Below are positions 300 to 63,758 of a stretch of DNA of 64,000 nucleotides, one piece after another. Under the pieces are notes generated by a model, which searched no databases, was not told the origin of the DNA, and saw only the letters and a list, made by a program, of their open reading frames with translations. The stretch is from Chrysomallon squamiferum. Lineage: Eukaryota; Animalia; Mollusca. A program made the translations under genes and the position numbers. The first letter of the stretch is position 1. Each line of letters opens with the position of its first letter. The stretch is taken from positions 34,100,001 through 34,164,000 of the forward strand of contig CM022672.1 of the NCBI GenBank assembly GCA_012295275.1. Reading direction: 5' to 3'.

Positions 300-1041
300 A
301 TGGAAAGGGGTAGAAGAAGAAGATTCGTTAACCTGACTGAGAATGAGACAGACGTGTACAAAATGGACGCCACACCCAGGAATTTGTGTGATCATCAACA
401 ACCGAGATTTTACTGATGAACGACTAAGTCGACGCGATGGCACAGACGAAGATAAAAACAAAGTGGAAGATTTTTTCAGACGACGTCATTTTGAAGTGAG
501 AATCTTTGAAAACCAGACCGATTCGGATATGCTGGAAGAACTAAAACGAATATCTTCTCTGGATCATCAAAACTACGACTGTTTCGTCTGCTTCATATTT
601 TCACATGGAGAGCACAGGTCAGTGTATGGAAGTAATGGCAAGCTTGTGTACGTAGAGGAAATAGAAACTTTTTTCTGCGCTAGACAATGTCGCTCTTTAG
701 CCAACAAACCAAAACTATTTTTCGTTCAAGCTTGCCAGGGAAGTCGACCGGCGCAAGCCGTTGCTGTGCAAACAGATAACGGATACAACAGAGTACGACG
801 CCTGGTGCATGAGTCGGCGGACTTTCTGACAGTTTTCGCTACGACTCCTGGAAACCTCGCCTACAGACAGACGACAGGATCTCGTTTTATTTCTACACTG
901 ATTGAAGTACTCGACAACAATCCTCGGGTCAGTCTTCTCGATATCATCACCATGGTGACAAACGAAATGAATGAAGTTACTGATGGAAAACAAATTCCTA
1001 TACAGACGTCCACTCTCAGAAAAAAAATTAAATTAAACTAG
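300..1041 (+). CDS. Caspase (C14; caspase-8/3-like catalytic domain, no long prodomain), copy 1, with 5' frameshift; possible pseudogene
   Basis: ORF 343-1041 has GICVIINN, RDGT, SHG, KPKLFFVQACQG, ADFL and GSRFI. ATG at 300 reads MERGRRRRFVNLTENETDVYKMDATPR in another frame. Relative to the paralog (cccagaggaatt) this copy has cccaggaatt, a 2-nt deletion near 378. Confidence 0.9.
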
Positions 1042-10598: not shown

Positions 10599-11029
10599 TA
10601 CCTTTTTATAATCATATTTTTTTTAAAAGATAAGAAAAATGGAATTATTTTTTTTATCTCAATTTGTCTGCATTTTACAGAACGCGTAGTTTGAAATGAC
10701 ATATATCAAAAAAATTCAAGAATTTGTTCATCAATGTGAAACAGTTTTCAAGGTTTCAAATATCACTGTATCGCTTTGACTTATTTATTAGTTTATTTCT
10801 TTATACAGACTCAGCCTTTGCTGTAATTTTATAACTTTAAAGAGAGTTATTTCCCTTATATCGTGTTTTTATGCAGTATTTCATCGACGCTGAGCTATTT
10901 ATTATTAAAAAATGTATTATTATTATTTTTAAATACAAACATTAAATTACTGTATTATTTGTTGTTTATTTGTATTTATTATTTGATTCATTCATTAGGC
11001 AGCACACACTCACAATAATAATAATAATA

Positions 11030-11087
11030 ACAAGATATGTTATTTACATTATAGTAACAAGATATAGTATTTTTGTTACACAAAAAT

Positions 11088-11177
<90 letters not shown>

Positions 11178-12013
11178 GATTGTAAAATATATAACTGTGA
11201 ATAACTTTGAATACAGTTTTATTAAGTTTGTGATAGAGTCTCTAGTTATAGAAAGCACTCAGATAAGATGTGAACTGTGTTGTCTTTATTTATTTTAATT
11301 AGATATTTCACTATTGTATAAAATTATAATTATTGTGCTTTTGATATCAGAGCCAGATTATAATAAAGCCGTTTAGCAAGCAAAATACAAAGGCTCGGAC
11401 TACTGTTTAGATTTCGGATCACAATCAAACTCAACTATGTTGTGAATGTTAATCTGCTTGACCCCGGGGCAGTTGTCCAGTTTGTGTCTTTATAAACGTG
11501 GCTCGGGTACCACCCTGCTTTGTGTGAAACACGTGTAAACAAACTTACATTAACACAAACCAACATCAGCCCGATGTTGAGTACGACCACCACGTAAACC
11601 ACGTCTCACTGTGTGTCGTGTGTAACAAACACAAAATACAAACACAAAAAACAAACACAAATACAAACACAAAATACAAACACAAACCTTCCTTCATTGA
11701 TGTGAATGTTTTGTGGTTTAAAACATGCTGTTAAAAAGAGTATTACACGATCACATGTTTTTTTTTTATATAATGAATCTAAATTGTTTGATATATTTTA
11801 CGTTATCATCACATATTCTCAACATGTTATAAATGATAAATTAATTCAAAAGTAATTTTCCAATACTGAAAGAGAAAAATGAAATCTGTCATTTTTAAAA
11901 TTTTCATGACGAATTATTATTATTAACCGTATATAACTTTATCTACTGAGAGAAATTAATACATACATACATACATACATATGTATATATGGAAAAACAC
12001 ACACACACACACA

Positions 12014-12056
<43 letters not shown>

Positions 12057-12260
12057 TTTGACTAAAAACGAAATATCAGCATTTATTTTCTAGAACAGTG
12101 TGACTGAGAAAATAAATTTTCCAGGATAAATAGTAACTAATAGGTCTTGTGCTATTTCAGAAAACGTTAATTATGTTTTGTAGCGTTTGTATCTTAACCA
12201 GAGTCGTTATCTCTCAGTTATTCATAATTAATTATAATTAGGATTATTCTAGTGAACTGA
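11030..12260 (-). repeat. Inverted paralog of the upstream region and part of intron 1 of the intact Hint gene (23195-23770, 24580-25065, 25986-26040)
   Basis: 11390-11690 is near-identical to the reverse complement of 24580-24890; 11030-11080 matches 25986-26040. Confidence 0.85.
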
Positions 12261-13031
12261 GTAACATATATTATTATTATTAGATCGATTATTATTACTG
12301 TCGTTGTTGTCGTCGTCTTCTCTACATAACATAGCCAAACCGGTTATATACGTGTCGTTTCCTAGTTAATATAACTGTTCCATCTTGAACTACACTGGGG
12401 TATAGACATCGCTGAACTGAACATGGAAGAAGTAAAACAATATGCTTACATATAATGAAGGTAAATTCACTTGGGTTGTAATGTCTGCTATATCTGCATC
12501 ACGTCCATGCCTTTGTCGTAACAAACAAATGCAGTTACAACATTAAAACAGTAGCACAATAAAGAAAAACCTTAAAGAAAAACCAAAACCAGAGAAAACA
12601 AAAAACAAACACAAAAACAGAAAAAGTAATACATAGCGTTTAATATCATATTTTAAAGTACTACATATTAAGTGAATACAAAAATTAGAATAATCATGTC
12701 TTCTAAACCATGATTAGAAAGTAATATATGAAAACAGAAGCAAAAGTTTAATAAAGGTAACAAAATTTAGTAATGCAGAAACAACCTCGTTGAAGGAAAT
12801 GTAAACTTAATATCTTCTGACACAAAGAACGTCTGATTTAACTTGAATGTCAACGATTGTGGAAAATAAATTAAAAATAAATATATAAGAATAAATATAT
12901 AAAATTATTAAAAACCCCTAAAATATTCACAATAATAAAAAGATGTACTGAATTGTACCCCATATTAATTTTTATTTCATTTTTTGCTTAAAGGTCTGAC
13001 GCAAACATATATTTAAAATAATCATAATGAC

Positions 13032-14399: not shown

Positions 14400-20932
<6,533 letters not shown>

Positions 20933-20972
20933 CTACATTGGAATCAGAAAGAAAATGAAATTAATATAAATT

Positions 20973-21172
20973 NNNNNNNNNNNNNNNNNNNNNNNNNNNN
21001 NNNNNNNNNNNNNNNNNNNNNNNNNNNNNNNNNNNNNNNNNNNNNNNNNNNNNNNNNNNNNNNNNNNNNNNNNNNNNNNNNNNNNNNNNNNNNNNNNNNN
21101 NNNNNNNNNNNNNNNNNNNNNNNNNNNNNNNNNNNNNNNNNNNNNNNNNNNNNNNNNNNNNNNNNNNNNNNN
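20973..21172. other. Assembly gap (200 N)
   Basis: Run of N; true length unknown. Confidence 1.
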
Positions 21173-21256
21173 GCTTATTAATTCATAATAACAGAACACA
21201 GGGTTAGAAACATGCAATAAGGTAAACACAGCAAATTTAGCTTCAGCCGATTTCAT
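21173..21256 (-). CDS. Signal-peptide exon of a third member of the peptide-Hint family, running into the gap
   Basis: MKSAEAKFAVFTLLHVSNPVFCYYELIS versus MKSAQAKFAVFTIFSVFNSVFC; about 190 bp upstream also aligns with 25190-25369. Confidence 0.7.
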
Positions 21257-22159: not shown

Positions 22160-22266
22160 TTTTGCGAAATCAGTGAAAGGAGGTGATTATTTGTTCAAAA
22201 CAGAAAGCTGTTCAGATGATATCTGTCCAGATCGAGTTGTACAAACATTTCATTCAAACAAACAAA
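22160..22266 (+). pseudogene. Orphan Hint exon (paralog of 27152-27258)
   Basis: Same 107-nt length, FAKSVKGGDYLFKTESCSDDICPDRVVQTFHSNKQ; CAG acceptor kept, donor degraded (gctaat); flanking intron sequence also aligns; other exons absent. Confidence 0.8.
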
Positions 22267-22910
22267 GCTAATCTAGTAACAGTACTAAATTTCAATAGCA
22301 GTTGTTGTAGTTATAGTACGTTGTCTAGTAATTTACATTAACATTAGAAAGAGTAGTAATAACAACTGTATTTGTACTAGCAGTAAGACTGGCATTACCG
22401 ATTTTTCCATTGGAAAATGTAAAACATGTTAATACAATTGAAAAACGAAACATTTCAAGTTGATTTTTCTTTCTTCTTGTGTTGAAGTGTATTTACTAAA
22501 CATTACTAAGAATGTGTGTACAAAAAAGAGCAGTTTGTGATCTGTTCGGTCCAACGTATTGTAACATTTGCGATTTACCGCGGTATCGTGGAAACTCCCT
22601 TCAACAGAAGCCAGTGCTATGGTGTTTTAATGTCTTAACTGCATGTGTCTGTTAACTCAATGACCTGGACATGATTCAGATATAGCAAACATTACAACCC
22701 AAGTGAATTTACTATCATATGTATATTTCTTTATTTCTTCCAAATAGTTAAGTACAACGATGTCATGGAATCCTAGTAGACTTCAAGATGGATCAGTTAT
22801 ATTAATTAGGAGATGACACGTGTGTGTTAACAACCGGCTCAGCTGTGATATGATAGAAAAAACAACCAGACGAGAACGAGAGTAATAATAATGAATGTAA
22901 TAATAACATA

Positions 22911-23172
22911 TATTATAAAATTCACTAGAATAATAATATCTGTTATAAAATTCACTAGAATAGTAACATATATTATAAAATGTACTAGAATAATAACATC
23001 TATTATAAAATTCACTAGAATAATAACATCTGTTATAAAATTCACTAGAATAATAACATCTATTATAAAATTCACTAGATAATAACATCTATTATAAAAT
23101 TCACTAGAATAATAACATCTTTATACAATTCACTAGAATAATAACATCTATTATAAAATTCACCAGAATAAT
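22911..23172. repeat. 30-bp minisatellite TTATAAAATTCACTAGAATAATAACATCTA
   Basis: About 9 copies. Confidence 0.95.
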
Positions 23173-23340
23173 ACTAATAATAATTAAATATCAATAACTG
23201 AGCCATAACGACTCTGGTTAAGATACAAATCCTACAAAACATAATTAATGTTTTCTGAAGTAGGACAAAATATATTAGTTACTATTTATCCTTGAATTTG
23301 TTTTCTTAATCATACTGTGTTTTTGTTTATGTGTGCGTGC

Positions 23341-23392
<52 letters not shown>

Positions 23393-24483
23393 GTGTGTGT
23401 GTCAGTTTATCTCAGCAGATAAAGTTGTACGGTTAAAAATAATTTATCACCATGAAAATTACGAAAGTAACAGATACCATTTACCATTTTTCTGTTTTAG
23501 TATTAGAAAAATACCTTTCAATTAATTTTGTATTTATAACATTGTTATGAGTATAGGATGACAACATTTAAAATATTTCAGACAATTTAGATTCATTATC
23601 AAAATGACCTATGCAATTTTTCTCTTTCAGGTATTAAGCTCTTTAATGTTTCACATTACCAGTCGTAAATTCGTTAACTACTCAAATTCATCATCGTTTT
23701 TTAACATACGATCATGTAGTATTCTTTTTACAGCGTGTTTTAAATCACAAGATTTTCACGTCAATGAAGCTATACATGTTAGAAACACATGTTTATCTAG
23801 AAATACTTTTACAAAAGATAACCAAAGACTTAAGATAGCAGATATTAAGTTAGATTCATACAGTTACAAAGATTTATCCAAAATATAATCATTCTTATTT
23901 CAGCACTTATAAACAATGGAAATATTGCTAATTCACCAGAAAGTTTGATTTCTTTATATAAAATATCTGTGAAACTTGAGATGAATTCTTTAACTTAATC
24001 TAAATGACTGAATCCCCGGTTTTCACATCCATATTATAATTATTTTAATTTTACAATCTTGCCAAACAAGTCTAACTGACATTCGACCGATGCATTATCA
24101 ACATCTAGTTTTGAATACAGTGAAGAGAGACTTTCAGTCTGGGTTGAATTAAATCTTCCTTAATATTTTTGAACTATCTGGATTGACTTAAGACAAGCCC
24201 AACATATTAACTGCAGTAACAATTTCTCTTTTTGTTTTTATTAGATATAACTGCATTCCAATTTGTTCGTAAGACTTTCCTTTAGAATATAAAAACACAA
24301 AAAGAACCTCTATTACTGACTCAATACCTTACAGTTTTCTGTAACTGTTTAGGGAATAATACGACATTAGAAATAACGAATGCTAGTTATAATAATCTCG
24401 TGATAACTAGAAACCATGTACAATGCATTTTCCTTAGTATCATGTAAACTTGTGTTACGTTTTTGAAAATAACCAGACAGAAA

Positions 24484-24626
24484 ATGTATTTTGTGTTTGT
24501 ATTTTGTGTTTGTATTTGTGTTTGTATTTTGTGTTTGTATTTTGTGTTTGTATTTGTGTTTGTATTTGTGTTTGTATTTTGTGTTTGTATTTTGTGTTTG
24601 TATTTTGTGTTTGTATTTTGTGTTTG
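24484..24626. repeat. 12-13-bp tandem repeat TATTTTGTGTTTG; shorter inverted copy at 11626-11686
   Basis: Visible tandem units. Confidence 0.9.
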
Positions 24627-25369
24627 TTACACACGACACACAGTGAGACGTGGTTTACGTGGTGGTCGTACTCAACATCGGGCTGATGTTGGTTTGTGTT
24701 AATGTAAGTTTGTTTACACGTGTTTCACACAAAGCAGGGTGGTACCCGAGCCACGTTTATAAAGATACAAACTGGACAACTGCCCCGGGGTCAAGCAAAT
24801 TAACATTCACAACATAGTTGAGTTTGATTGTGATCCGAAATCAAACAGTTGTCCGAGCCTTTGTAATTTTGCTTGCTAAACGGCTTTATAATGTTTCGGC
24901 TGTGATATGAATACACAATAATTAAAATCTTATACAATAGTGAAATGTCTAATTAAAAGAAATAAACACACAATACTACATAACTTATCTTATTCCCTGT
25001 ACTTTATGTAACTAGAGTCTGTATTACAAACTGAATAAAACTGTATTCAGCAGTTATTCACACAGTCAATACAGTTGAGAAAAATAAAAATAAAACCTAA
25101 AAACTTCATTATGTAAATGATGGTACCACTTCTCGCTTATCTAATAAATATGTAGTTTTACAAGAGAATTTAATTAAGCGCTTTTTATTATAGCAATATA
25201 ATGTCGTTTTTTAATGAACAAACGAGCAGCTTCAAAAGAAATAAAAATACAAGTATCTATTACTGGACTGATCAAAGTAAGTGAAAAACATCTGTGCGTA
25301 TTTGAATATATGAAACTATTTAAATTATGTTCATATTGGTTTTTCTATTAGTAACACTATTACTGCAGA

Positions 25370-25710
25370 ATGAAATCGGCTCAAGCTAAATTCGCTGTGT
25401 TTACGATCTTCAGTGTTTTTAACTCTGTGTTTTGTTCCCTTTCAGTGAGAAAGAGAGCAGAGGTAAGCAAAATTTAACCATAACCCAATAAAATATAATA
25501 TTGTAGTTTAGACAGCAGTTTAATATAATAATAGGATGTAAAATATGACAAATATTTGTAGATAATCAAGAACATGGAACTGGTCTAAAAATGATTTTTT
25601 TTTATTTTCTAGCGCACTCATGTTTTTATCTGAATCACTAAAGGAAGATTCGAATTGCTAATTAATAAAACATTACCTCAAATTCTGTTCAGACATATCC
25701 TCCTATTGCA

Positions 25711-25789
<79 letters not shown>

Positions 25790-27448
25790 ATATAATGAAT
25801 GGAGAAGGATTCTTTTAATAAGTAACAATAAATATAAGTATTTTCCACTTGATAGATTTTTTATACGTAGTCTCAGAATTTATTATGTTATAATGTATTT
25901 ATTTTTTATTTTTTTATTATTTATTTATTTACTTACTTACTTACTTTTTATTATAATGTAAGACAAAAAAGGTATCCTCTTAACATAACAAAAATATTGA
26001 CATCTTGTTACTATAATGTAAATAATATATCTTATTACTATAATCTAATATATCTTGTACGTAAATACTGTTAGTAGTGTTCACCTAGTTAATTTTTCAC
26101 ACAACAGTACGAATTACAACAATTTACAGACAAACCCAAAGCTAACTGTTTACTTCTTTTCGTTAATGTTAAAATATTAAAACTACTCAATCAACGAAAC
26201 TAGCAATGTCGATGTGGAGATCAAATGATGTTCTGTAATTTTGGATGTTGTCCTGAGTATCATGTTTATTGGGACGAGTGTTGTCTGCCATGCATGATGG
26301 CGGATAAGGAGGACTCTTCACGCTGCTTTCCTGGTGACGTCACTGTGCTCCTGGACACTGGGGAGACTGCAGAAATGAAAAACCTCGTTTCAGGACAAAA
26401 GATTCTCACTGGTACGTCACGTGTTTGTTTCGAGTTACACACTGAGGTGTTCAGTATTTCTCTCTTCTTTTTTTTTGACATTCTACGCACGTCGTTTCCT
26501 CAACAGTACCAATGTTAGGTGCTGCACTGAAGCAAGAGATCTCTTAGGTCAAGAATGAAATAAAACAGTCGAGTGTTGTTAACTGGTGAAGTAACTACAA
26601 CTAAGATCGTTTCATCAACGTTCCATTATTTCCTATCTTTTTTCGTATAAAATGAAGACATGTTTCATGTTGTTTTAATGATGACAAAACATGTTCTACT
26701 GAAAGTCTATCAATTTAATATTATTTTACTAATTTCAGTACAAAATGGAAAACGCTTATTTTCTCAAGTCAGAACATTTCTGCATCGACAACCAGCATCA
26801 AATACGACATTTGTGACTCTGATTACAGAACAAGGCCGTCGACTTTCTCTCACCGAGTTACACATTGTGTTTACCTCAGCAAATAAGTCAGCCAGCATGG
26901 AACCTAAGTTTGTTTTCTTTCTTAGTGTAATTACAATGCTTTTCAAATAAATTTCGAAAATCTATTCAAATAAGTTTCTTCTGGATGAAATTATGTATAA
27001 GTGCATTATTTGAATTGTAAGTCTTAAACAACATAGTTTATTTTAAAATTAATTCATAGTACATTAAGATAATATTTAATATTCCATGTATATCATGTAT
27101 TATTTAATGAATAACATCTGTTATTTACACTATATTTGTTGTTTTCTTGAGGTTTGCTAAATCAGTGAAACCAGGTGATTATTTATTCAACACAGAGAGC
27201 TGCACAGCTGATGTCTGTCCAGAACGAGTTGTACAAATATTTCTTTCACACAAACAAGGTAAGCTAGTAATAGTACTAAATAGTAATAGCAGTAGTTGTA
27301 GTATAGTACACTTTGTCTAGTAACTTGTACTAATATTAGTAACAGTAGTACTAACAGCAGTATTTGTACTAGTAGTAATAATTACAGTAATAATTATAAT
27401 AGTGGTAATTCTGGTAACGACAGTAATATATATGTACTTCTATATATG

Positions 27449-27487
<39 letters not shown>

Positions 27488-27815
27488 ACACATTCACACA
27501 CACACTCACACACACATTCACACACACACACATTTAGTTACATGCATATACCACATAGACACAGATATTCACATACACACCTACTTGAAATTATCTCCAG
27601 GTTTGTACGCTCCTCTGACGGACACGGGAACTGTTGTTGTTAATGGGATTGTGGCTTCCTGCTATGCACATGTTCTCTTACAAGACTTCACACACAGTTT
27701 CACACTGTCTCCATTTCGATGGTTTCCTTGGTTGTTAGAGCCGTGGCAAGAAGTCGGTTTCAGTCCTATTTTGTCCTACTTGGAACCCGTGTATAAAAGT
27801 ATTTTCCGCGCCTGA
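25370..27815 (+). CDS. Secreted hedgehog-related (Hog/Hint domain) precursor: signal peptide, KR site, 8-Cys peptide, Hint, SRR-like tail; 263 aa
   Basis: Exons 25370-25462, 26204-26411, 26739-26907, 27152-27258, 27601-27815 join in frame (792 nt). MKSAQAKFAVFTIFSVFNSVFCSLSVRKR-AEQCRCGDQMMFCNFGCCPEYHVYWDECCLPCMMADKEDSSR-CFPGDVTV...TFLHR...LSLTELHIVF...FAKSVKPGDYL...GLYAPLTDTGTVVVNGIVASCYA...SPFRW. AATAAA at 27816 and 27884. Exon 2 and exon 4 acceptors are weak. Confidence 0.88.
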
Positions 27816-28559
27816 AATAAAGTTAGACAATTACCACAACTGTATTTCTGGTTTCTAGATGAAAATGTATTGTTTGAGTGATAAATAAACAGTTCTCTCC
27901 TGCCAATCTGAATTATACTGACTTTATTGTTTTTCTCAGTGATATACTAAACTCGATTTGTCTAAACACATGATACAGATGTACACACAAACACACTTAC
28001 TCAAACACATTCATTCACGTAATACTGACATACATGCAATTGTACGGTGTTAGAATCGAAACCATATTTTATCAGTTCACAAAACAGCAGCATGCACAAC
28101 GCGTAGACGTCACAGGTGTAATGATGACGTTGTCAGAGGATCCTAACTGGTCTCAGTCCAAATAAGACTGACCAAGCAACCAATGTTGTCACCTATGAAG
28201 ATAGATTATTCAGAAAATTATGAAGTCAGCAAATGATTTCATTTTATTTTAGAGAATGGTCAAACTGAATTCAAATGATTATATGTGGTCACTTCCTTTA
28301 TTTTAATTTCAAATCTGTTTTGAATGAATTAAAAGTTCTGCATACTAACAAATATAACTTTGTATCATCTTTTACTCAACAATCTCTGAGTTTTAGAAAG
28401 TCCAAAAATTACAACGTTTTGACTTGAATTTTTAAGCATTCTGTGCACGATGCAATATTCATCTTATGTTTCAGGAATTTACTATTAGCGTGTGTGTATG
28501 TGTCTATGTATGTATCTGTCTATGTGTGTCAGTATGTTTGTGGATGTGTGTGTTTTGTG

Positions 28560-36126: not shown

Positions 36127-36470
36127 ACGGATCATCTTCGTGCCGTTTCTACCGCTTGAAGAACAACACGTGGTCGACTGCATTAAGCATGATTTGCACG
36201 TGAAGCGCGAGAAGCAAACGCGAGACACAATACAGCAAGTTATTAATGAATTAATTTTCACTGAGCAAGAAAACGGACGTCGTTATTCTGTTAATGGTTG
36301 CAAACGTGTTTCTGATAAAGTGACATATGTAACAAATTTTCAATAGCAATAGCCAATGAAACGGCTGGAAATAGGTCACATGATTTCACTCGACGTACTA
36401 AGTGATATTTCTTTCTTTCTTTCTTTCTTATATTTTCAATATTACATCGTGTTCATTTATTTTTAGATAT
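36127..36470 (+). pseudogene. 5'-truncated torsin fragment (last ~70 codons plus 3'UTR)
   Basis: RIIFVPFLPLEEQHVVDCIKHDL..GCKRVSDKV, nearly identical to 44492-44820 including UTR; upstream part absent. Confidence 0.9.
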
Positions 36471-38121: not shown

Positions 38122-38940
38122 TTAAAAAATAATTCGTTTCCGGAGAGTCGACTTCAGTATAGGAATTTGTTTCGGATCAGTAACTTCATTCATTTCGTTT
38201 GTCACCATGGTGATTATATCGAGAAGACTGACTCGAGGATTGTTGTCGAGTACTTCAATCAGTGTAGAAATAAAACGAGATCCTGTCGTCTGTCTGTAGG
38301 CGAGGTTTCCAGGAGTCGTAGCGAAAACCGTCAGAAAGTCCGCCGACTCGTGAACAGGATATTCTGTTCTGACGTCACAGCAGAATCCGTGATCTATTTC
38401 CACAGCAACGTCTTGCGCCGGTCGACTTCCCTGGCAAGCTTGAACGAAAAATAGTTTTGGTTTGTCGGCTAAAGACCGACATTGTCTATTGCAGAAAAAA
38501 GTCTGTATTTCATTTACTGATACAAGCTTGCCATTACTTCCATACACTGACCTGTGCTCTCCATGTGAAAGTATGAAGCAGACGAAACAGTCGTAGTTAC
38601 GATGATCCAGAGAAGATATTCCTTTTAGTTCTTCCAGCATATCCGAATCCGTCTGGTTTTCAAAGATTCTCACTTCAAAATGACGTCGTCTGAAAAAGTC
38701 TTCCACTTTGTTTTTATCTTCGTCTGTGCCATCGCGTCGACTTAGTCGTTCATCAGTAAAATCTCGGTTGTTGATGATCACACAAATTCCTCTGGGTTCG
38801 GCGTCCATTTTGTTACCGACTGTTTCTTCAGTTTTGGCGTCCATTTTGTACAAGTCTGTCTCTTTCTTCGTAAAATGTTCGACTTCAGCGTCTTGAAAAT
38901 ATTCCACTTCATGGGAATTCAGCTTGTGTGTTTTCTTCAT
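38122..38940 (-). CDS. Caspase (QACQG), copy 2, intact single-exon ORF, 272 aa
   Basis: YKMDA..PRGICVIINN, ILSHG, KPKLFFVQACQG, ADFL, QIP..STLRK motifs; near-identical to 343-1041 over the catalytic domain. Confidence 0.93.
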   Translation of the reverse strand: MKKTHKLNSHEVEYFQDAEVEHFTKKETDLYKMDAKTEETVGNKMDAEPRGICVIINNRDFTDERLSRRDGTDEDKNKVEDFFRRRHFEVRIFENQTDSDMLEELKGISSLDHRNYDCFVCFILSHGEHRSVYGSNGKLVSVNEIQTFFCNRQCRSLADKPKLFFVQACQGSRPAQDVAVEIDHGFCCDVRTEYPVHESADFLTVFATTPGNLAYRQTTGSRFISTLIEVLDNNPRVSLLDIITMVTNEMNEVTDPKQIPILKSTLRKRIIF

Positions 38941-40055
38941 TTTTCTTCTTATATTTTGCTTGCTTTTTTATTTTATTTATTTATTTATTTTTAATAGACG
39001 ATTATTAATACAGAATACAATTCCGGAAACAATTAATCTCTTTAACGAAGTCAATTTAATTTTAAACTTCTCGATGTGGTGCTCAGTAATTATCTGGCGG
39101 TTATACAATTAAGTAATAATCTTAAGATGTTTGTGGTATATATTTTCGCATTATATCAGCTTGGGTGTAATTTAATCACGTTTAATCATCTGATAACTGA
39201 TAACCGAGAGGTATGACACATACATACAATTATTCTTAACATGTAAACATCTGTTGTATGACTTGGAATTCTGCCTTTATGGTTTCGTACTTGAATTTCT
39301 TTGGTGATTTAAACCCAGACGATTCGTATAAAATAGGATCTACACAGCATAGAGGAGAACAAGAAAAAAATAGAATAAAATCTTTAGAAAAGTATGCACT
39401 GTTTTCGAGGAGTGTGTATTAGTCTTTGTATATATGTGTGTGTACGTGAGTGTGTCTTTGTGTATATGTTTGAGTGTGTGTTAGCGTGTGTGTTTGTTTT
39501 GTGTGGTGTGTGTAGGTATGTGTGTGCTTTTGTACATGTGTATGTTTTTGGGTGTGTTTTGTGTCTTTGTGTTTGTGTTATGTGTTTGTTATGTGTTTGT
39601 GTGTGTGTGTGTGTGTTTGTCTTCGTGTGCTAGACAAAACCAAGTTACACTGATATACTGCTTTCATGAATCGAGAGATTTGTGTTGACAAATTCTTCAC
39701 ATTAATTATTATTCACGAGTGGACTGCGACAAAATACGAATATGGCGCCGCATTCGCTTTGACATTTGTGACACTGACTACAGTGCAAGGCCGTTGACTT
39801 ACTCTCATGTTTATATATATATATATGTAATTATGTAACTCAATAGCAAAATGACAATGGCATTGAATCTGAGTACAAAAGTATCTGACAGTGAAGAGAT
39901 ACATTCACACTGAGGCTTGCACGGCAAACACAATTAATGTCACGATTTACGTAGAAGTTGTTTGAAATTTATTTTTTAGATGTCGCTGGCGAAATATAAA
40001 ATTCATTAGTATTCATATACGAACGAAACATGAAATACTTTACAACAAAGCCCTG

Positions 40056-43260: not shown

Positions 43261-43847
43261 TAAAAATGTCGGTGACTCTAATTCAGTTTGAAAATGATCG
43301 TATGTTGTTTTACTTTACTAGTAATAATTGTTGTGCAGTACTATTTTTACACGTTGTTTTCTCATAGGCCTGTTATTAATTTAACATAAAGTAAATTTGT
43401 GTATTGTAAATGTTAATATTGTTAACACTATTAAATCATACAGTTTATCCAGAATTTAGATCCATGAGAGATAAGTGAAGAAAATATGTTCAGTGGTATA
43501 AAATTATATACAGGATGTAACTGTAAACATCTCTAACCGATGCATATTTGCTTTCGTGTGTCTGTATGTATATGTGTGTATCTGTGTGTGCTTGCGTGTA
43601 TATGTGTGTGTGTGTGTGCGTTTCAATTCGGCGATTTGTTGACTGATGATAGGATCAACATTTTTCATATTTAATTATAATTTAAATCAATGAATTTATA
43701 ATTTCCTGAATGTATTTTTTAATTTGTATGCTTATAAATTAGGTATTTTTAAAACTAACTAATTAATTAATACTACTTTTCAACAGGTGTTTTATTCAAA
43801 CGAAATCTCAACACGAGAGGATATTCTTAAGTCTGAGTTAACCAAAC

Positions 43848-44711
43848 ATGTTTCTAACTATAACTTCTGTTATTCTTGTCGCTGGAATTGCTTACGTTTT
43901 ATTCCCAAGACCTTGCACTTTTGAATTCAATTTCTTTAGACTGCTAGAAAACATTTCCGTACATGTATATGGACAGCATATTGCTTGTGATATTGTTCCG
44001 AAGGAGATCTCCAGATATTTTGACAGGCATCAGACATATTTCGAGCCTCTAATTCTTTCATTCCATGGCTCATATGGAGTTGGTAAAAATTACATGTCAA
44101 AGTTCATCGTCGACTTCTTCCCATGCAAAACAGAACTGATTTTCACAGCTGAGACAGATGCAACGTACAGAGAACTAACAGGCGACTACGCCAGCAACGT
44201 AAAGCGACGAATTATGTCGACAGTTGCCGAATGTCACGTTAACATCGTCATTCTGGATGAAGTGGAACGTTTTTCGGACGCCGTGATGGAAGAAATCCTA
44301 AAATATCTCGATTATTTTTCGAACAAGAAAAACGTTCCTATTATTGTGCTGTTGCTTGGAAATAGCAGGTCGCTGCACATAAATAATGTTGTTTTCACAA
44401 CAAAATTACCGAGAAGAAGATTGTCACGAATTGATTTCGAATTCTCTAAAACGGACAACGAGTGGTATGCTAAATTTATCAGGCGAAAAAGACGGATCGT
44501 CTTCGTGCCGTTTCTACCGCTTGAAGAGGAACACGTGGTCGACTGCATTAAGCATGATTTGCTCGTGAAGCGCGAGAAGCAAACGCAAGACACAATACAG
44601 CAAGTTATTAATGAATTAATTTTCACTGAGCAAGAAAACGGACGTCGTTATTCTGTTTATGGTTGCAAACGTGTTTCTGATAAAGTGGATTTTGTACGAA
44701 CTCACCAATGA
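43848..44711 (+). CDS. Torsin-family AAA+ ATPase, single coding exon, 287 aa
   Basis: Hydrophobic N-terminus, VYGQHIA, PLILSFHGSYGVGKNY (torsin Walker A GKN), ILDEVE (Walker B), FVPFLPLE..HV..CI, YS..GCKRV. Acceptor at about 43786 implies a 5'UTR intron. Confidence 0.92.
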   Translation: MFLTITSVILVAGIAYVLFPRPCTFEFNFFRLLENISVHVYGQHIACDIVPKEISRYFDRHQTYFEPLILSFHGSYGVGKNYMSKFIVDFFPCKTELIFTAETDATYRELTGDYASNVKRRIMSTVAECHVNIVILDEVERFSDAVMEEILKYLDYFSNKKNVPIIVLLLGNSRSLHINNVVFTTKLPRRRLSRIDFEFSKTDNEWYAKFIRRKRRIVFVPFLPLEEEHVVDCIKHDLLVKREKQTQDTIQQVINELIFTEQENGRRYSVYGCKRVSDKVDFVRTHQ

Positions 44712-48422: not shown

Positions 48423-48425
48423 TAC

Positions 48426-50174
<1,749 letters not shown>

Positions 50175-53398: not shown

Positions 53399-53519
53399 TT
53401 ACTGCATCATCTCCATCAAAAGCGGCAGCATCATGGGATGCATGTTGCCCCCGCTATTCATCATCATCATCATCATCATCGGCATCATACCTTCACCTCC
53501 ACCCCCGCTCATCATCATC
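53399..53519 (-). CDS. Probable terminal exon of a small Met/Gly-rich protein
   Basis: tttcag acceptor, then MMMSGGGGEGMMPMMMMMMMNSGGNMHPMMLPLLMEMMQ*, then AATAAA; GC-richer island in AAT repeats; upstream exons not identified. Confidence 0.6.
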
Positions 53520-53604
53520 CTGAAATATAACAACAACAACAACGATAACAACAACCACAACAACAGTAACAGCAACGATAAATAATAGTAATAATAATAT
53601 GATC

Positions 53605-56813: not shown

Positions 56814-57992
56814 TCACTTGATAGCAAAAGCTTCTTCTAACATACGCTTAATTTCAGACATATCTACCGACAATATTATAGATACGCTGCCAGCCTCGTT
56901 CTGGTGCTCATTCCAGTCCACCTCCATCCGACCCCTGGTGTCGCTATTTCCTGTGTCCACTTTCACAGACGCCGATTTCCTGGCTGTTATGACGTCATCA
57001 TTCAAGGCGGCCGCCATTGCGTACTGATCCGCCAGGAGGTATCCTTTCTTTAGCTGAGAACAATCGAGATCGTGTTCATCATCGTTTTTATCGTTTTTGA
57101 TCAAATGTCCGTCACCTTCGTAAAATGTTTCAATTGTTTTCCGTTCCACTGTTTTCATAAACTGAGCGATCTTTGTTGGCTTATTAACAAGTTCTTCATA
57201 CCAACTCTGAAAATAATAATAGCAGTAGTAGTAGTAGTAGTAGTAGTAGTAATAATAATCATAAATAAATAAATAATATTAATAATTAGATAAAATAAAA
57301 TAAACACAAAAACACAAGGACTGTTTCACGTACCCATGGAAACGAATTACTGACGCACAGATCCCAACAAGCTATTGTGATTGGACAACCGAGGTCACTG
57401 AGGACTATCTGAGCTGCTTCCGGGTCACTGTGAAAGTTGAATTCCGCATATGACGTCACATTACCCGCCACTGGAATAAATGACGTGCACGTGAACACCA
57501 TTATGTTAATCAAATGTTAGATGAAGACGAAAAATACGCACATTCATTTCAGGAAGAATTCAAAAGCATATTAAAAATAAGTAAATAAACACACACAAAA
57601 AAACGGGTTTAACTTATTAACAGGAATTAAAGAATGTAGCAACAAAATTATAATTAATGATTTTTGGGAGTCAAAATATTTACTAATAATTAACTATTCC
57701 AGATTAGTGACAATGCTTTGTACATTTCATGTTATCTTAGTTCATTATCAGATAATGAGAACAGTGTTAACAATGACCAAAACAACAGTAACGATAACAA
57801 CAGCAAGAACGACAACGACAATAACAATAAGAAAAAGAAAAAGAAGAAGAAGAATTTTCGTAACACGAACCGTGGTAATTTCCTCCCATTATGTAACAGC
57901 TCCTAAGACGTTTACCAAATCCTGGATCTAATCTGATTGCAATAGCAACATTCGTGAGTGGTCCTAAAGCAACTAGAGTGACGTCACCTACA

Positions 57993-58027
<35 letters not shown>

Positions 58028-58140
58028 ATTCCTTACAAGTAATTATGTTAATTTTCATTTTATATCTTTGTATTCTTGTTTTATTCAAATAGAGAATATT
58101 CTGAAAGCAACGACATAATATATATATACATATACCTATG

Positions 58141-58187
<47 letters not shown>

Positions 58188-58779
58188 AAAAAATGCTGTG
58201 TCTATTTTGGAAGGGTCTCTACGTTTTATAACAACAACATCAACAAAACAACAATGAGAATAATAACAACAATAATAATAATGTATATTTGTTAAGAAAA
58301 ATGTAATATACTAATGGTACAAATTATGTTTATGATGATCATAATGTTCAACAGCAGCAACAACAACAACAATAATGATAATAATTAAAATATATGCCTG
58401 TGTCATGGATGTTAGATAATTTTAAAGTCTGAATAAACAGCATCCTTGTTTAAACAGGGAATTATCTTTGTGTGCATTTTTTACGATTTTAGTATTTTTG
58501 CTATTACTAATTTATTAATATAGTAAGTAAATAATCTTTTTTTCAGAAATCTCTTGCCTGGATACTTTTTTGATAAGTTCAGTAAAGCTTGCACGCCATG
58601 TTCTTTTTTAATCAGAACGTCGTCTGATGGATTCGAGTCGAAGACGTCGCCAAAACCGTCAGTGCCGTGGTAGTTGATGTCGGGTGGTTTCTTCCACCCC
58701 ATTAACATTTCGTCACATCCGACGTAAACAGGAATCTGAGGAAAACAAATCATTTTATCAAATAAGAGAACTAATTAAG

Positions 58780-58871
<92 letters not shown>

Positions 58872-58899
58872 TTATGTTTATTTATTTTGCACGCAGACT

Positions 58900-58930
<31 letters not shown>

Positions 58931-59418
58931 GGACAGAAACACACGCCTACATATACATACACAAACACACAGCAGACAATACACACACACACACACATAC
59001 AGAAACACATTTTATACACACACACATACATACGTCCATATGCTATTTAAGGTTAAGTTTCCAAATTTCAGTTTTCTATTTATTTTACAATCATCAGCCA
59101 GCTTAACAAACTAAATAACTAACTAATAAACAAAGAAGAAAATAAAATAGAAGAAAAAGAAGAAAAAAATAGAAGAATATATATATATATTAAATTCAAA
59201 GCAAGCCTCGTAATCGAAATTATACTAACATCAAGATGACCAGCTTCTCGTAACAGGCGTAACAAATTTCTCCCAACTTGTTTAGATCGGGTGTTTCCGG
59301 TAACTGTCGTCAGAGCAATGATTTCCACGTGGCTTGAAGACATTGCCATCAAAATGGCCTGAGCGTCATCTATTCCCGCGTCTGTGTCGATTATTAGTAA
59401 CTGTTTTCTGTCGGCCAT
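56814..59418 (-). CDS. Inosine-uridine preferring nucleoside hydrolase family protein, 337 aa
   Basis: Exons 59230-59418, 58558-58735 (GC donor), 57871-57987, 57334-57470, 56814-57206. Motifs [64 protein letters not shown]. Confidence 0.93.
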
Positions 59419-59478
59419 TACAGTTTGCTGGTTCGAAATTCAGTTTAGAAAGAGCTACCAGTTCTATAAACAAGCAAA

Positions 59479-63402: not shown

Positions 63403-63537
63403 CTCCCAAAATAAAATAAAATAATTAATTCAGTACAAAACGAAAAATAATTTTAAAATAATTTTTTTTTTAAATCTGAAATTTGGAAAAGGAATTAAAA
63501 TGAAAATACGAACCTTTCAAACTGCCTATTAAAATAA

Positions 63538-63584
<47 letters not shown>

Positions 63585-63709
63585 CTGTACGGCAGTGTGA
63601 ATGTACTTGCCTTTAGACGCAAGGTGAAGTGGTGATACATGAGACCCAACTGTAAAGTTTGGATCAGCTCCACATTCCAGTAAGAGTCGGACAATATCCA
63701 AGTAACCAC
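62913..63709 (-). CDS. Ankyrin-repeat protein, last two exons, Lys-rich C-terminal tail
   Basis: 99-nt phase-1 exon 63611-63709 (GYLDIVRLLLECGADPN..SPLHLASK, GC donor) and last exon 62913-63205 (GNHTEIVKLLLLNGA..KKGKKGKKGGKKGKKGKKKKK*); gene continues beyond the window. Confidence 0.88.
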
Positions 63710-63758
63710 CTGAAAAATATAGAATGAAAATCATTTATTTATTTATTTGTTTGCTTGT

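Follow-up and report, generated by a model that had tools for sequence, protein, structure and literature searches.

A peptide-Hog gene in the window

The window analysed here, 64,000 nucleotides of AT-rich, animal-type Chrysomallon squamiferum DNA with many introns and microsatellites, contains a gene whose five exons, all bounded by GT donors and AG acceptors, join into a single 792-nucleotide frame of 263 amino acids and a stop codon, with exon-junction phases of 0, 1, 2 and 1 (Table 1). The encoded protein consists of a hydrophobic start, a basic pair (Lys28-Arg29), a 42-residue peptide (the payload) and, from Cys72 onwards, a 192-residue Hog domain. Against a profile built from seven relatives in the deep-sea vent snail Gigantopelta aegis, the joined protein reaches a score of 292 bits, which, together with the splice-site ends and the open frame, bears out the five-exon model of the preliminary description; the gene is real and intact.

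The Pfam Hint family (PF01079) matches exon 3 (E = 1.7e-11) and exon 5 (E = 4.6e-12), both above the 29.7-bit cut-off, and exon 2 under it (E = 5e-4); exon 4 alone has no Pfam match. With Cys72, Thr139, His142 and Cys213 all present, the claim of a complete Hint domain that lacks a Hedge domain holds: Pfam gives no match to the Hedge family in the exons of the window gene or in eight relatives, and 71 amino acids precede the first residue of the Hog domain (Cys1). An AG acceptor at 25367–25368 directly precedes the ATG of exon 1, pointing to an upstream exon that is probably non-coding, and the genome just 5' of this ATG has stops in frame. Further upstream exons encoding a larger N-terminal domain had been considered as a potential objection; they are unlikely because the relatives begin at their signal stretch, as six of seven do, with 44–80 amino acids before Cys1.

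Table 1. Features of the window (position 1 is its first letter)
Feature	Position	Strand	Content
Exon 1, coding part	25370..25462	+	start Met, signal-like hydrophobic stretch, Lys-Arg (28-29), payload residues 1-2
Intron 1, 3' end	26140..26203	+	branch-like CTAAC and T-rich tract, AG-free zone, TAG acceptor 26201-26203
Exon 2, payload part	26204..26323	+	40 of 42 codons of the eight-Cys payload; Arg at -1 last
Exon 2, Hog start	26324..26411	+	Cys1 = protein Cys72; Hint block A; aligns with SHH 192-225
Exon 3	26739..26907	+	His116 (Asp46 position), Thr139/His142 of T-x-x-H block; spliced related RNA contigs
Exon 4	27152..27258	+	Hint middle; Cys-x4-Cys pair conserved across the family
Exon 5	27601..27815	+	Hint end (Cys213 = Cys143), adduct-recognition tail, stop
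AATAAA polyadenylation signal	27816..27821	+	directly 3' of the stop; second AATAAA at 27884
Paralogous copy B	48424..50174	-	short payload without Cys after a signal-like start; Hog frameshifted by 2 nt in second exon
Exon-1 copy	21174..21256	-	interrupted by 200-N gap
Isolated exon-4 copy	22160..22270	+	donor lost, runs into stop
Caspase-domain ORF	337..1038	+	domain in one exon
Caspase-domain ORF	38125..38967	-	domain in one exon
Torsin-like AAA ORF	43842..44708	+
Partial duplicate of Torsin-like ORF	36128..36343	+	3' end
Protein-tyrosine-phosphatase exons	~15800..20960	-	interrupted upstream by 200-N gap 20973-21172
Inosine-uridine nucleoside hydrolase exons	56817..59439	-
Ankyrin-repeat exon	63498..63734	-
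Gly/Met-rich frame	~53400..53520	-	short; long Met runs to stop, amid trinucleotide repeats
Inverted matches	22623..25062 (upstream of gene) and 11021..12550		several, 71-91%

The proposed signal peptide and basic site are retained in part: the signal-like start and Lys28-Arg29 are present and homologues share the plan, but the hydrophobic core falls short of that in six G. aegis relatives (best 11-residue mean 1.90, versus 2.7–3.5).

Intron 1, RNA evidence and other copies

The acceptor of intron 1 has a pyrimidine content of 41% and no pyrimidine tract nearby; its AG is the first to follow a 60-nucleotide zone devoid of AG (none from 26142 to 26201) that opens with CTAAC and a T-rich tract. 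Among the G. aegis proteins, P0008 reads R-K-R-A-x-x-C-x-C-G, a spacing that arises in the window gene only through the splice of exon 1 to exon 2, and P0006 reads R-R-R-A-x-C-x-C-G. Since the reading frame has to take in the C-x-C-G motif, homology forces the acceptor at the TAG listed in Table 1, and intron 1 appears to be settled indirectly by comparison with these two proteins. Among the RNA contigs, none joins 25462 to 26204 or lies on exon 1 or on the payload of this copy (which is no evidence on expression), so that intron 1 rests on homology.

Related RNA contigs come from three runs that share the organism label of run X1, which itself covers introns as well as exons. They are spliced at introns 2–4: one joint, 26850 to 27153, leaves 58 letters between, exactly as many as expected if intron 3 is taken out; the loose ends at 26738 are similar to the last part of exon 2, and those at 27238 lead from the exon 4 end on into exon 5. 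Since these contigs resemble the window at only 85–95%, or else correspond to copy B and not to this gene, they prove the intron positions of the family and not the expression of this gene. RNA support for the four introns, as the preliminary description had envisaged it, thus extends to introns 2–4 in related contigs, and no contig spans intron 1.

Run X1 contains contigs nearly identical to the window gene, with one or two differences, and up to 15 contigs overlap one site in exon 3, this overlap (at most 15) being the only measure used, as summed depth in that run does not equal copy number. The same run contains the payload exon in a second version, which keeps the three Cys codons that lie well inside the contig and has Gly at -1; eight of its 13 listed substitutions and three single-letter insertions fall in the linker, and two more differences are unlisted.

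No exon 5 of copy B was found within the window. Run X3 contains a spliced RNA contig, of copy B or a sister copy, with the same 2-nt shortfall, and copy B or a sister copy is therefore transcribed. Copy B could still yield a secreted peptide that lacks a Hog domain, an echo of Hog loss in the nematode wrt/grd genes. Because three broken or partial copies share the window with it, the intact gene may itself be decaying. That the family is real and this copy a young or decaying duplicate, poorly spliced or silent within a birth-and-death cluster, is quite unlikely in our judgement: such a reading would agree with the weak intron-1 acceptor, the three broken relatives nearby and the divergence of the RNA contigs, but is opposed by the open five-exon frame, the full set of catalytic residues, the even number of Cys, the AATAAA 3' of the stop and the near-identical contigs in run X1.

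The payload peptide

The payload that follows Lys28-Arg29 has 42 amino acids, a net charge of -5 and Cys at positions 4, 6, 13, 17, 18, 28, 29 and 32, and the spacing claimed for it, C-x-C-x6-C-x3-CC-x9-CC-x2-C, is read directly from the joined frame; from these eight Cys up to four disulfides are predicted. When all six frames of the window were searched for eight Cys within 29 stop-free codons, under a low-complexity filter, five places were found, one of them the payload. The payload is more than a chance concentration, because the other four places are read-throughs of TG microsatellites.

For the description of the peptide as toxin-, defensin- or hormone-like, no matching family was found. 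Two stretches of the payload matched no Pfam family at E ≤ 10, granulin, Shisa-like, defensin and conotoxin families included, in a search whose HMMER filters drop weak hits, and a profile of five payloads matched no PDB sequence at E ≤ 10. A cationic defensin does not fit, as the payload is acidic. The structures that AlphaFold predicted for the payload (pLDDT 60, pTM 0.25) and for P0008 (pLDDT 40) were both too poor for use, and Foldseek with the poor payload model returned no matches.

These results bear on the idea that the products are defensive toxins, or inhibitors of proteases or other enzymes, that are secreted into gut or mucus and have no part in signalling or symbiosis. The prepropeptide layout and variable Cys frameworks recall conotoxin-type families, and hedgehog-like models are expressed in the gland discussed below, but with neither a Pfam nor a solved-structure match, and with some members of the family free of Cys, we give this idea very little credence.

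Chemistry of the Hog domain

In alignment, Cys72, Thr139, His142 and Cys213 match the catalytic set of Hedgehog, and cleavage before Cys72 is, on our own estimate from these residues, highly probable. His116 aligns with the His of the 6TYY structure (D46H) and with the Asp of 1AT0; the Asp46 position is occupied by His or Lys in all six relatives that have this exon, four of them with Lys. The helix-1 His, Pro and Arg equivalents of the tail are kept, but the HWY motif of helix 2 of the SRR is absent from all eight proteins checked, G-[FYH]-S-P replacing the G-I-H-W-Y of Hedgehog; the window gene has Ser-Pro here. Residue -1 is Arg71 and not the Gly of GCF; in the relatives it is non-Gly in five of seven (K, D, D, S, S) and Gly in two.

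Several experimental results provide a background, as given in the available portions of the sources. In human SHH, neither H433A nor Y435A yields a cholesteroylated product, cholesterolysis being abolished in vitro (PMC7242414). D303H keeps activity and has a wider sterol range, accepting coprostanol and epicoprostanol, and D303A, N, R and E are cleaved faster by DTT (PMC9163320). N-terminal residues are reported to be unnecessary for cholesterolysis (PMC7906309), and Trichinella Xhog1/2 also have Arg at -1 (PMC2362128).

Of the proposed self-release and lipidation, the release is likely, with the catalytic residues intact, whereas the cholesterol step is weakened: because Asp46 is replaced by His or Lys and HWY is absent from every protein checked, addition of cholesterol to the payload is doubtful. 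If cleavage does occur, a free acid and an adduct (non-cholesterol or sterol) would be about equally probable outcomes. Strong conservation of the tail among the family members implies that it binds something, and argues for continued binding of a membrane or another adduct.

The same conservation would suit a Hog domain that is still a sterol ligase, yielding a peptide with a C-terminal sterol that acts, like Hedgehog, as a membrane-tethered, short-range signal, perhaps on Patched-type receptors. His at position 46, aligned with that of 6TYY, could serve as a working general base with a wider sterol range, and the helix-1 equivalents are in place; but HWY is missing throughout even though SHH requires H433 and Y435 in vitro (PMC7242414), four relatives have Lys at 46, and sterol addition by non-Hedgehog Hog proteins is stated to be unclear in the available part of PMC2362128, and we regard a retained sterol ligase as rather unlikely.

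A family with a constant tail and a variable payload

A search with exon 2 among 1.84 billion representatives gave five matches, of which a protein from G. aegis and an ENA fragment are real; the others, a stick-insect repeat and two bacterial-type repeat proteins, were rejected as chance. Of 608 candidates in a profile search, 13 proteins had E ≤ 0.001, namely eight G. aegis RefSeq representatives located on five chromosome-sized contigs, four exon-sized ENA fragments and one distant Hog protein. With cluster members included there are nine G. aegis RefSeq models, two isoforms being counted once (XP_041371453/454 [isoforms], XP_041372238, XP_041360543, XP_041356242, XP_041350542, XP_041356210, XP_041379577, XP_041372396 and XP_041372413); seven of these reach Cys1, and all were automatically named 'desert/indian hedgehog-like' or left uncharacterized. 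Single-exon word searches found no match (weak evidence), two metagenome scans yielded 245 and 87 pattern matches, none of which was confirmed, and in the ESM Atlas exon 2 scored at most 0.82 and exon 5 led to rotifer-dominated Hint clusters.

The relatives score 134–150 bits against PF01079. In seven G. aegis proteins the Hog domain is 52–55% identical to that of the window gene (30% in the distant Hog), and the 45 residues before Cys1 are only 13–31% identical. Local similarity of the window payload to that of P0006 was equalled in none of 5000 shuffles and to that of P0008 in three; for P0010 it was marginal (100 of 5000), and for P0004, P0009 and P0013 there was none beyond shuffles (329, 1727 and 2728 of 5000). 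The G. aegis payloads contain 0, 4, 6, 6, 8 and 8 Cys, P0011 being set aside for its odd, doubtful long N-terminus. Two genes share the six-Cys framework C-x-C-x6-C-x3-C-x4-CC and two eight-Cys forms end in CC-x2-C, and the eight-Cys spacing of the window gene is not repeated exactly among them. A [KR]R site stands 1–8 residues before the first C-x-C in four of the five Cys-bearing relatives, P0013 being the one that lacks it.

The homologues independently show the succession of signal, basic site, short Cys peptide and Hog domain, and the members share the tail motif, the central Cys pair and the prepropeptide plan. A Hog tree, limited to family members and one distant Hog, was poorly resolved and unrooted by Hedgehog, and was not used. 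The preliminary description had missed this multigene family with hypervariable payloads. As judged from these comparisons, the family evolves by birth and death, with a variable cargo on a constant tail, and since it is the payload that varies, the Hog tail is likely there to release a repertoire of small peptides, which may be directed to the organ where the snail houses its bacteria. P0006/P0002 (XP_041371453/454) skips the equivalents of exons 3 and 4 exactly, with loss of the T-x-x-H block, and is either a mis-model or a non-cleaving isoform.

Expression of hedgehog-like models in the G. aegis oesophageal gland

Hedgehog is mentioned in 27 annotation rows of the available supplements to the genome paper on G. 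aegis (PMC7895826); once seven were dropped (three HHAT, wntless, two patched and SUFU), 20 hedgehog-like, ligand-like models remained. Thirteen of the 20 are raised in the oesophageal gland, which houses the symbionts, with log2FC of 2.0–8.6, and 12 of 15 contigs carry such a model. The gland background is 1,782 of 21,438 genes (8%), by which 1.7 of the 20 would be expected; the nominal P of 4e-10 is to be read with the caveat that paralogues are not independent, as they share regulation and reads. The gland was compared only with foot, ctenidium (gill) and mantle, and is itself gut tissue. These models bear contig-based names not tied to the RefSeq family proteins and may be other Hog genes. 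Two adjacent models that resemble true hedgehog are outside the gland list, and one gland-enriched model is named 'lophotrochozoan hedgehog-related'.

The word 'hedgehog' does not occur in the main text of the paper, nor was it found in the available portions of its other supplements, by name including the proteome. The Scaly-foot Snail table (column Mean_OG, read as oesophageal gland) contains one gene named as a hedgehog ligand, with FC 2.4, in a count drawn from 12 of the 13 supplements of PMC7142155, where the total of such genes is not given. Three HHAT-like acyltransferase models lie on one G. aegis contig (PMC7895826, Supplementary Data 1).

Comparison with known systems

With the Hog domains of Drosophila (HhC, 1AT0; D46H, 6TYY) and human SHH (7E2I) the window gene shares Cys1, T-x-x-H and the Cys143 motif, as well as the tail helix-1 His/Pro/Arg and a secreted precursor. 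Unlike Hedgehog it has no Hedge domain, has Arg in place of Gly at -1, His at Asp46 (a natural match to the engineered D46H) and a replaced HWY, and it has an extra central Cys pair and a convertase-type site before the payload. The predicted protein appears to work like HhC but, with four defining features missing, is no Hedgehog.

Secreted Hog proteins with new and in some cases very short N-termini are described from nematodes, cnidarians and protists (Bürglin 2008, PMC2362128), and the enoplean short-hog/Enop-hog and cnidarian Hog genes have, as here, a signal, a short N-terminal peptide and a Hog domain. Their N-terminal peptides have 15–34 amino acids, or about 60–70 with six Cys. Trichinella Xhog1/2 (Ts Xhog1/2) resemble the window gene in Arg at -1, and the enoplean and cnidarian genes share with it, by eye, His at the Asp46 position. 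In contrast to the window payload, the Enop motif (C-x19-C-x7-C-x9-C-x-C-x-C by eye) has no CC pair; these genes belong to a different phylum, and the available part of PMC2362128 describes neither a convertase site nor a hypervariable family among them. Short-payload Hog genes having been described already, the architecture itself is known, and the novelty suggested for the payload is reduced to that extent.

Molluscan Hh-related genes number 11 in Lottia cf. kogamogai and one in Acanthochitona, with Lophohog among them (PMC5103448, PMC9695228); like the present family, Lophohog and its molluscan kin are lophotrochozoan, lack Hedge and are expanded in gastropods. The available portions of the two papers describe no short Cys peptides or basic sites, and the matches of the exon-2 and profile searches include no Lottia or Capitella proteins (a weak negative). 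The family may itself belong to Lophohog, a point that bears directly on its novelty. A literature search, with most subscription journals outside it, found no description of this peptide-Hog family.

A further likeness lies outside the Hog proteins. Legume NCR peptides, aphid BCR peptides and the conotoxin superfamilies are secreted, small and Cys-framed multigene families with a variable mature part and no self-cleaving tail. The window family recalls them in being Cys-framed, variable and multigene, and predicted to be secreted; it differs in that conservation lies in the Hog domain at the C-terminus.

Proposed mechanism and significance

The explanation we favour, and to which we assign somewhat better than an even chance, is that the gene encodes a prepropeptide, likely secreted, that would be cleaved at two places, after Lys-Arg by a convertase and before Cys72 by the Hog domain of the precursor itself. 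The product would be a peptide of 42 residues, one member of a fast-varying family, likely acting outside the cell with up to four disulfides. In the ER, Cys72 would attack the carbonyl of Arg71 in an N-S shift helped by Thr139 and His142, and the thioester would pass to a nucleophile, either directly or by way of Cys213. His116 and the tail would position this nucleophile, which, given the replacement of Asp46 and the lack of HWY, is more likely to be water or a non-cholesterol lipid. Reading frame, motifs, family membership and the pattern of constant tail and variable payload are observed; these reaction steps are modelled on Hedgehog biochemistry. The peptide would serve as a ligand or effector in the gut-derived gland, control of resident bacteria being the leading candidate role; its acidic payload, unlike cationic antimicrobial peptides, counts against this explanation.

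A further-reaching proposal, which we consider unlikely, is that chemosymbiotic snails reuse the autoprocessing domain of Hedgehog as a release-and-tagging cassette for a diversifying library of disulfide peptides that are produced in the gland and police or instruct the intracellular bacteria of the gland, the His/Lys swaps serving to attach something other than cholesterol; if true, this would be an animal counterpart of the legume NCR peptides. If the gland enrichment in G. aegis belongs to this family, this would point to peptides, overlooked under a mistaken 'hedgehog-like' annotation, at the interface between vent snails and their symbionts, and would show that a domain from a developmental gene can conceal small bioactive peptides ahead of it. 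What appears to be new is a family of variable disulfide peptides with a convertase site, set on a Hog domain with altered adduct-determining residues. The cargo adduct of non-Hedgehog Hog domains has been an open question since they were named (PMC2362128, available part); with tiny, easily made substrates and a natural D46H-type ligase that has a different conserved tail, the family would allow a mass measurement to answer it.

Other features of the window

Around the peptide-Hog gene lie the further genes and fragments listed in Table 1, among which the two caspase-domain ORFs have about 88% DNA identity. The Gly/Met-rich frame may be a real low-complexity exon or a repeat read-through, and the inverted matches upstream of the gene represent either an old inverted duplication or a shared repeat.
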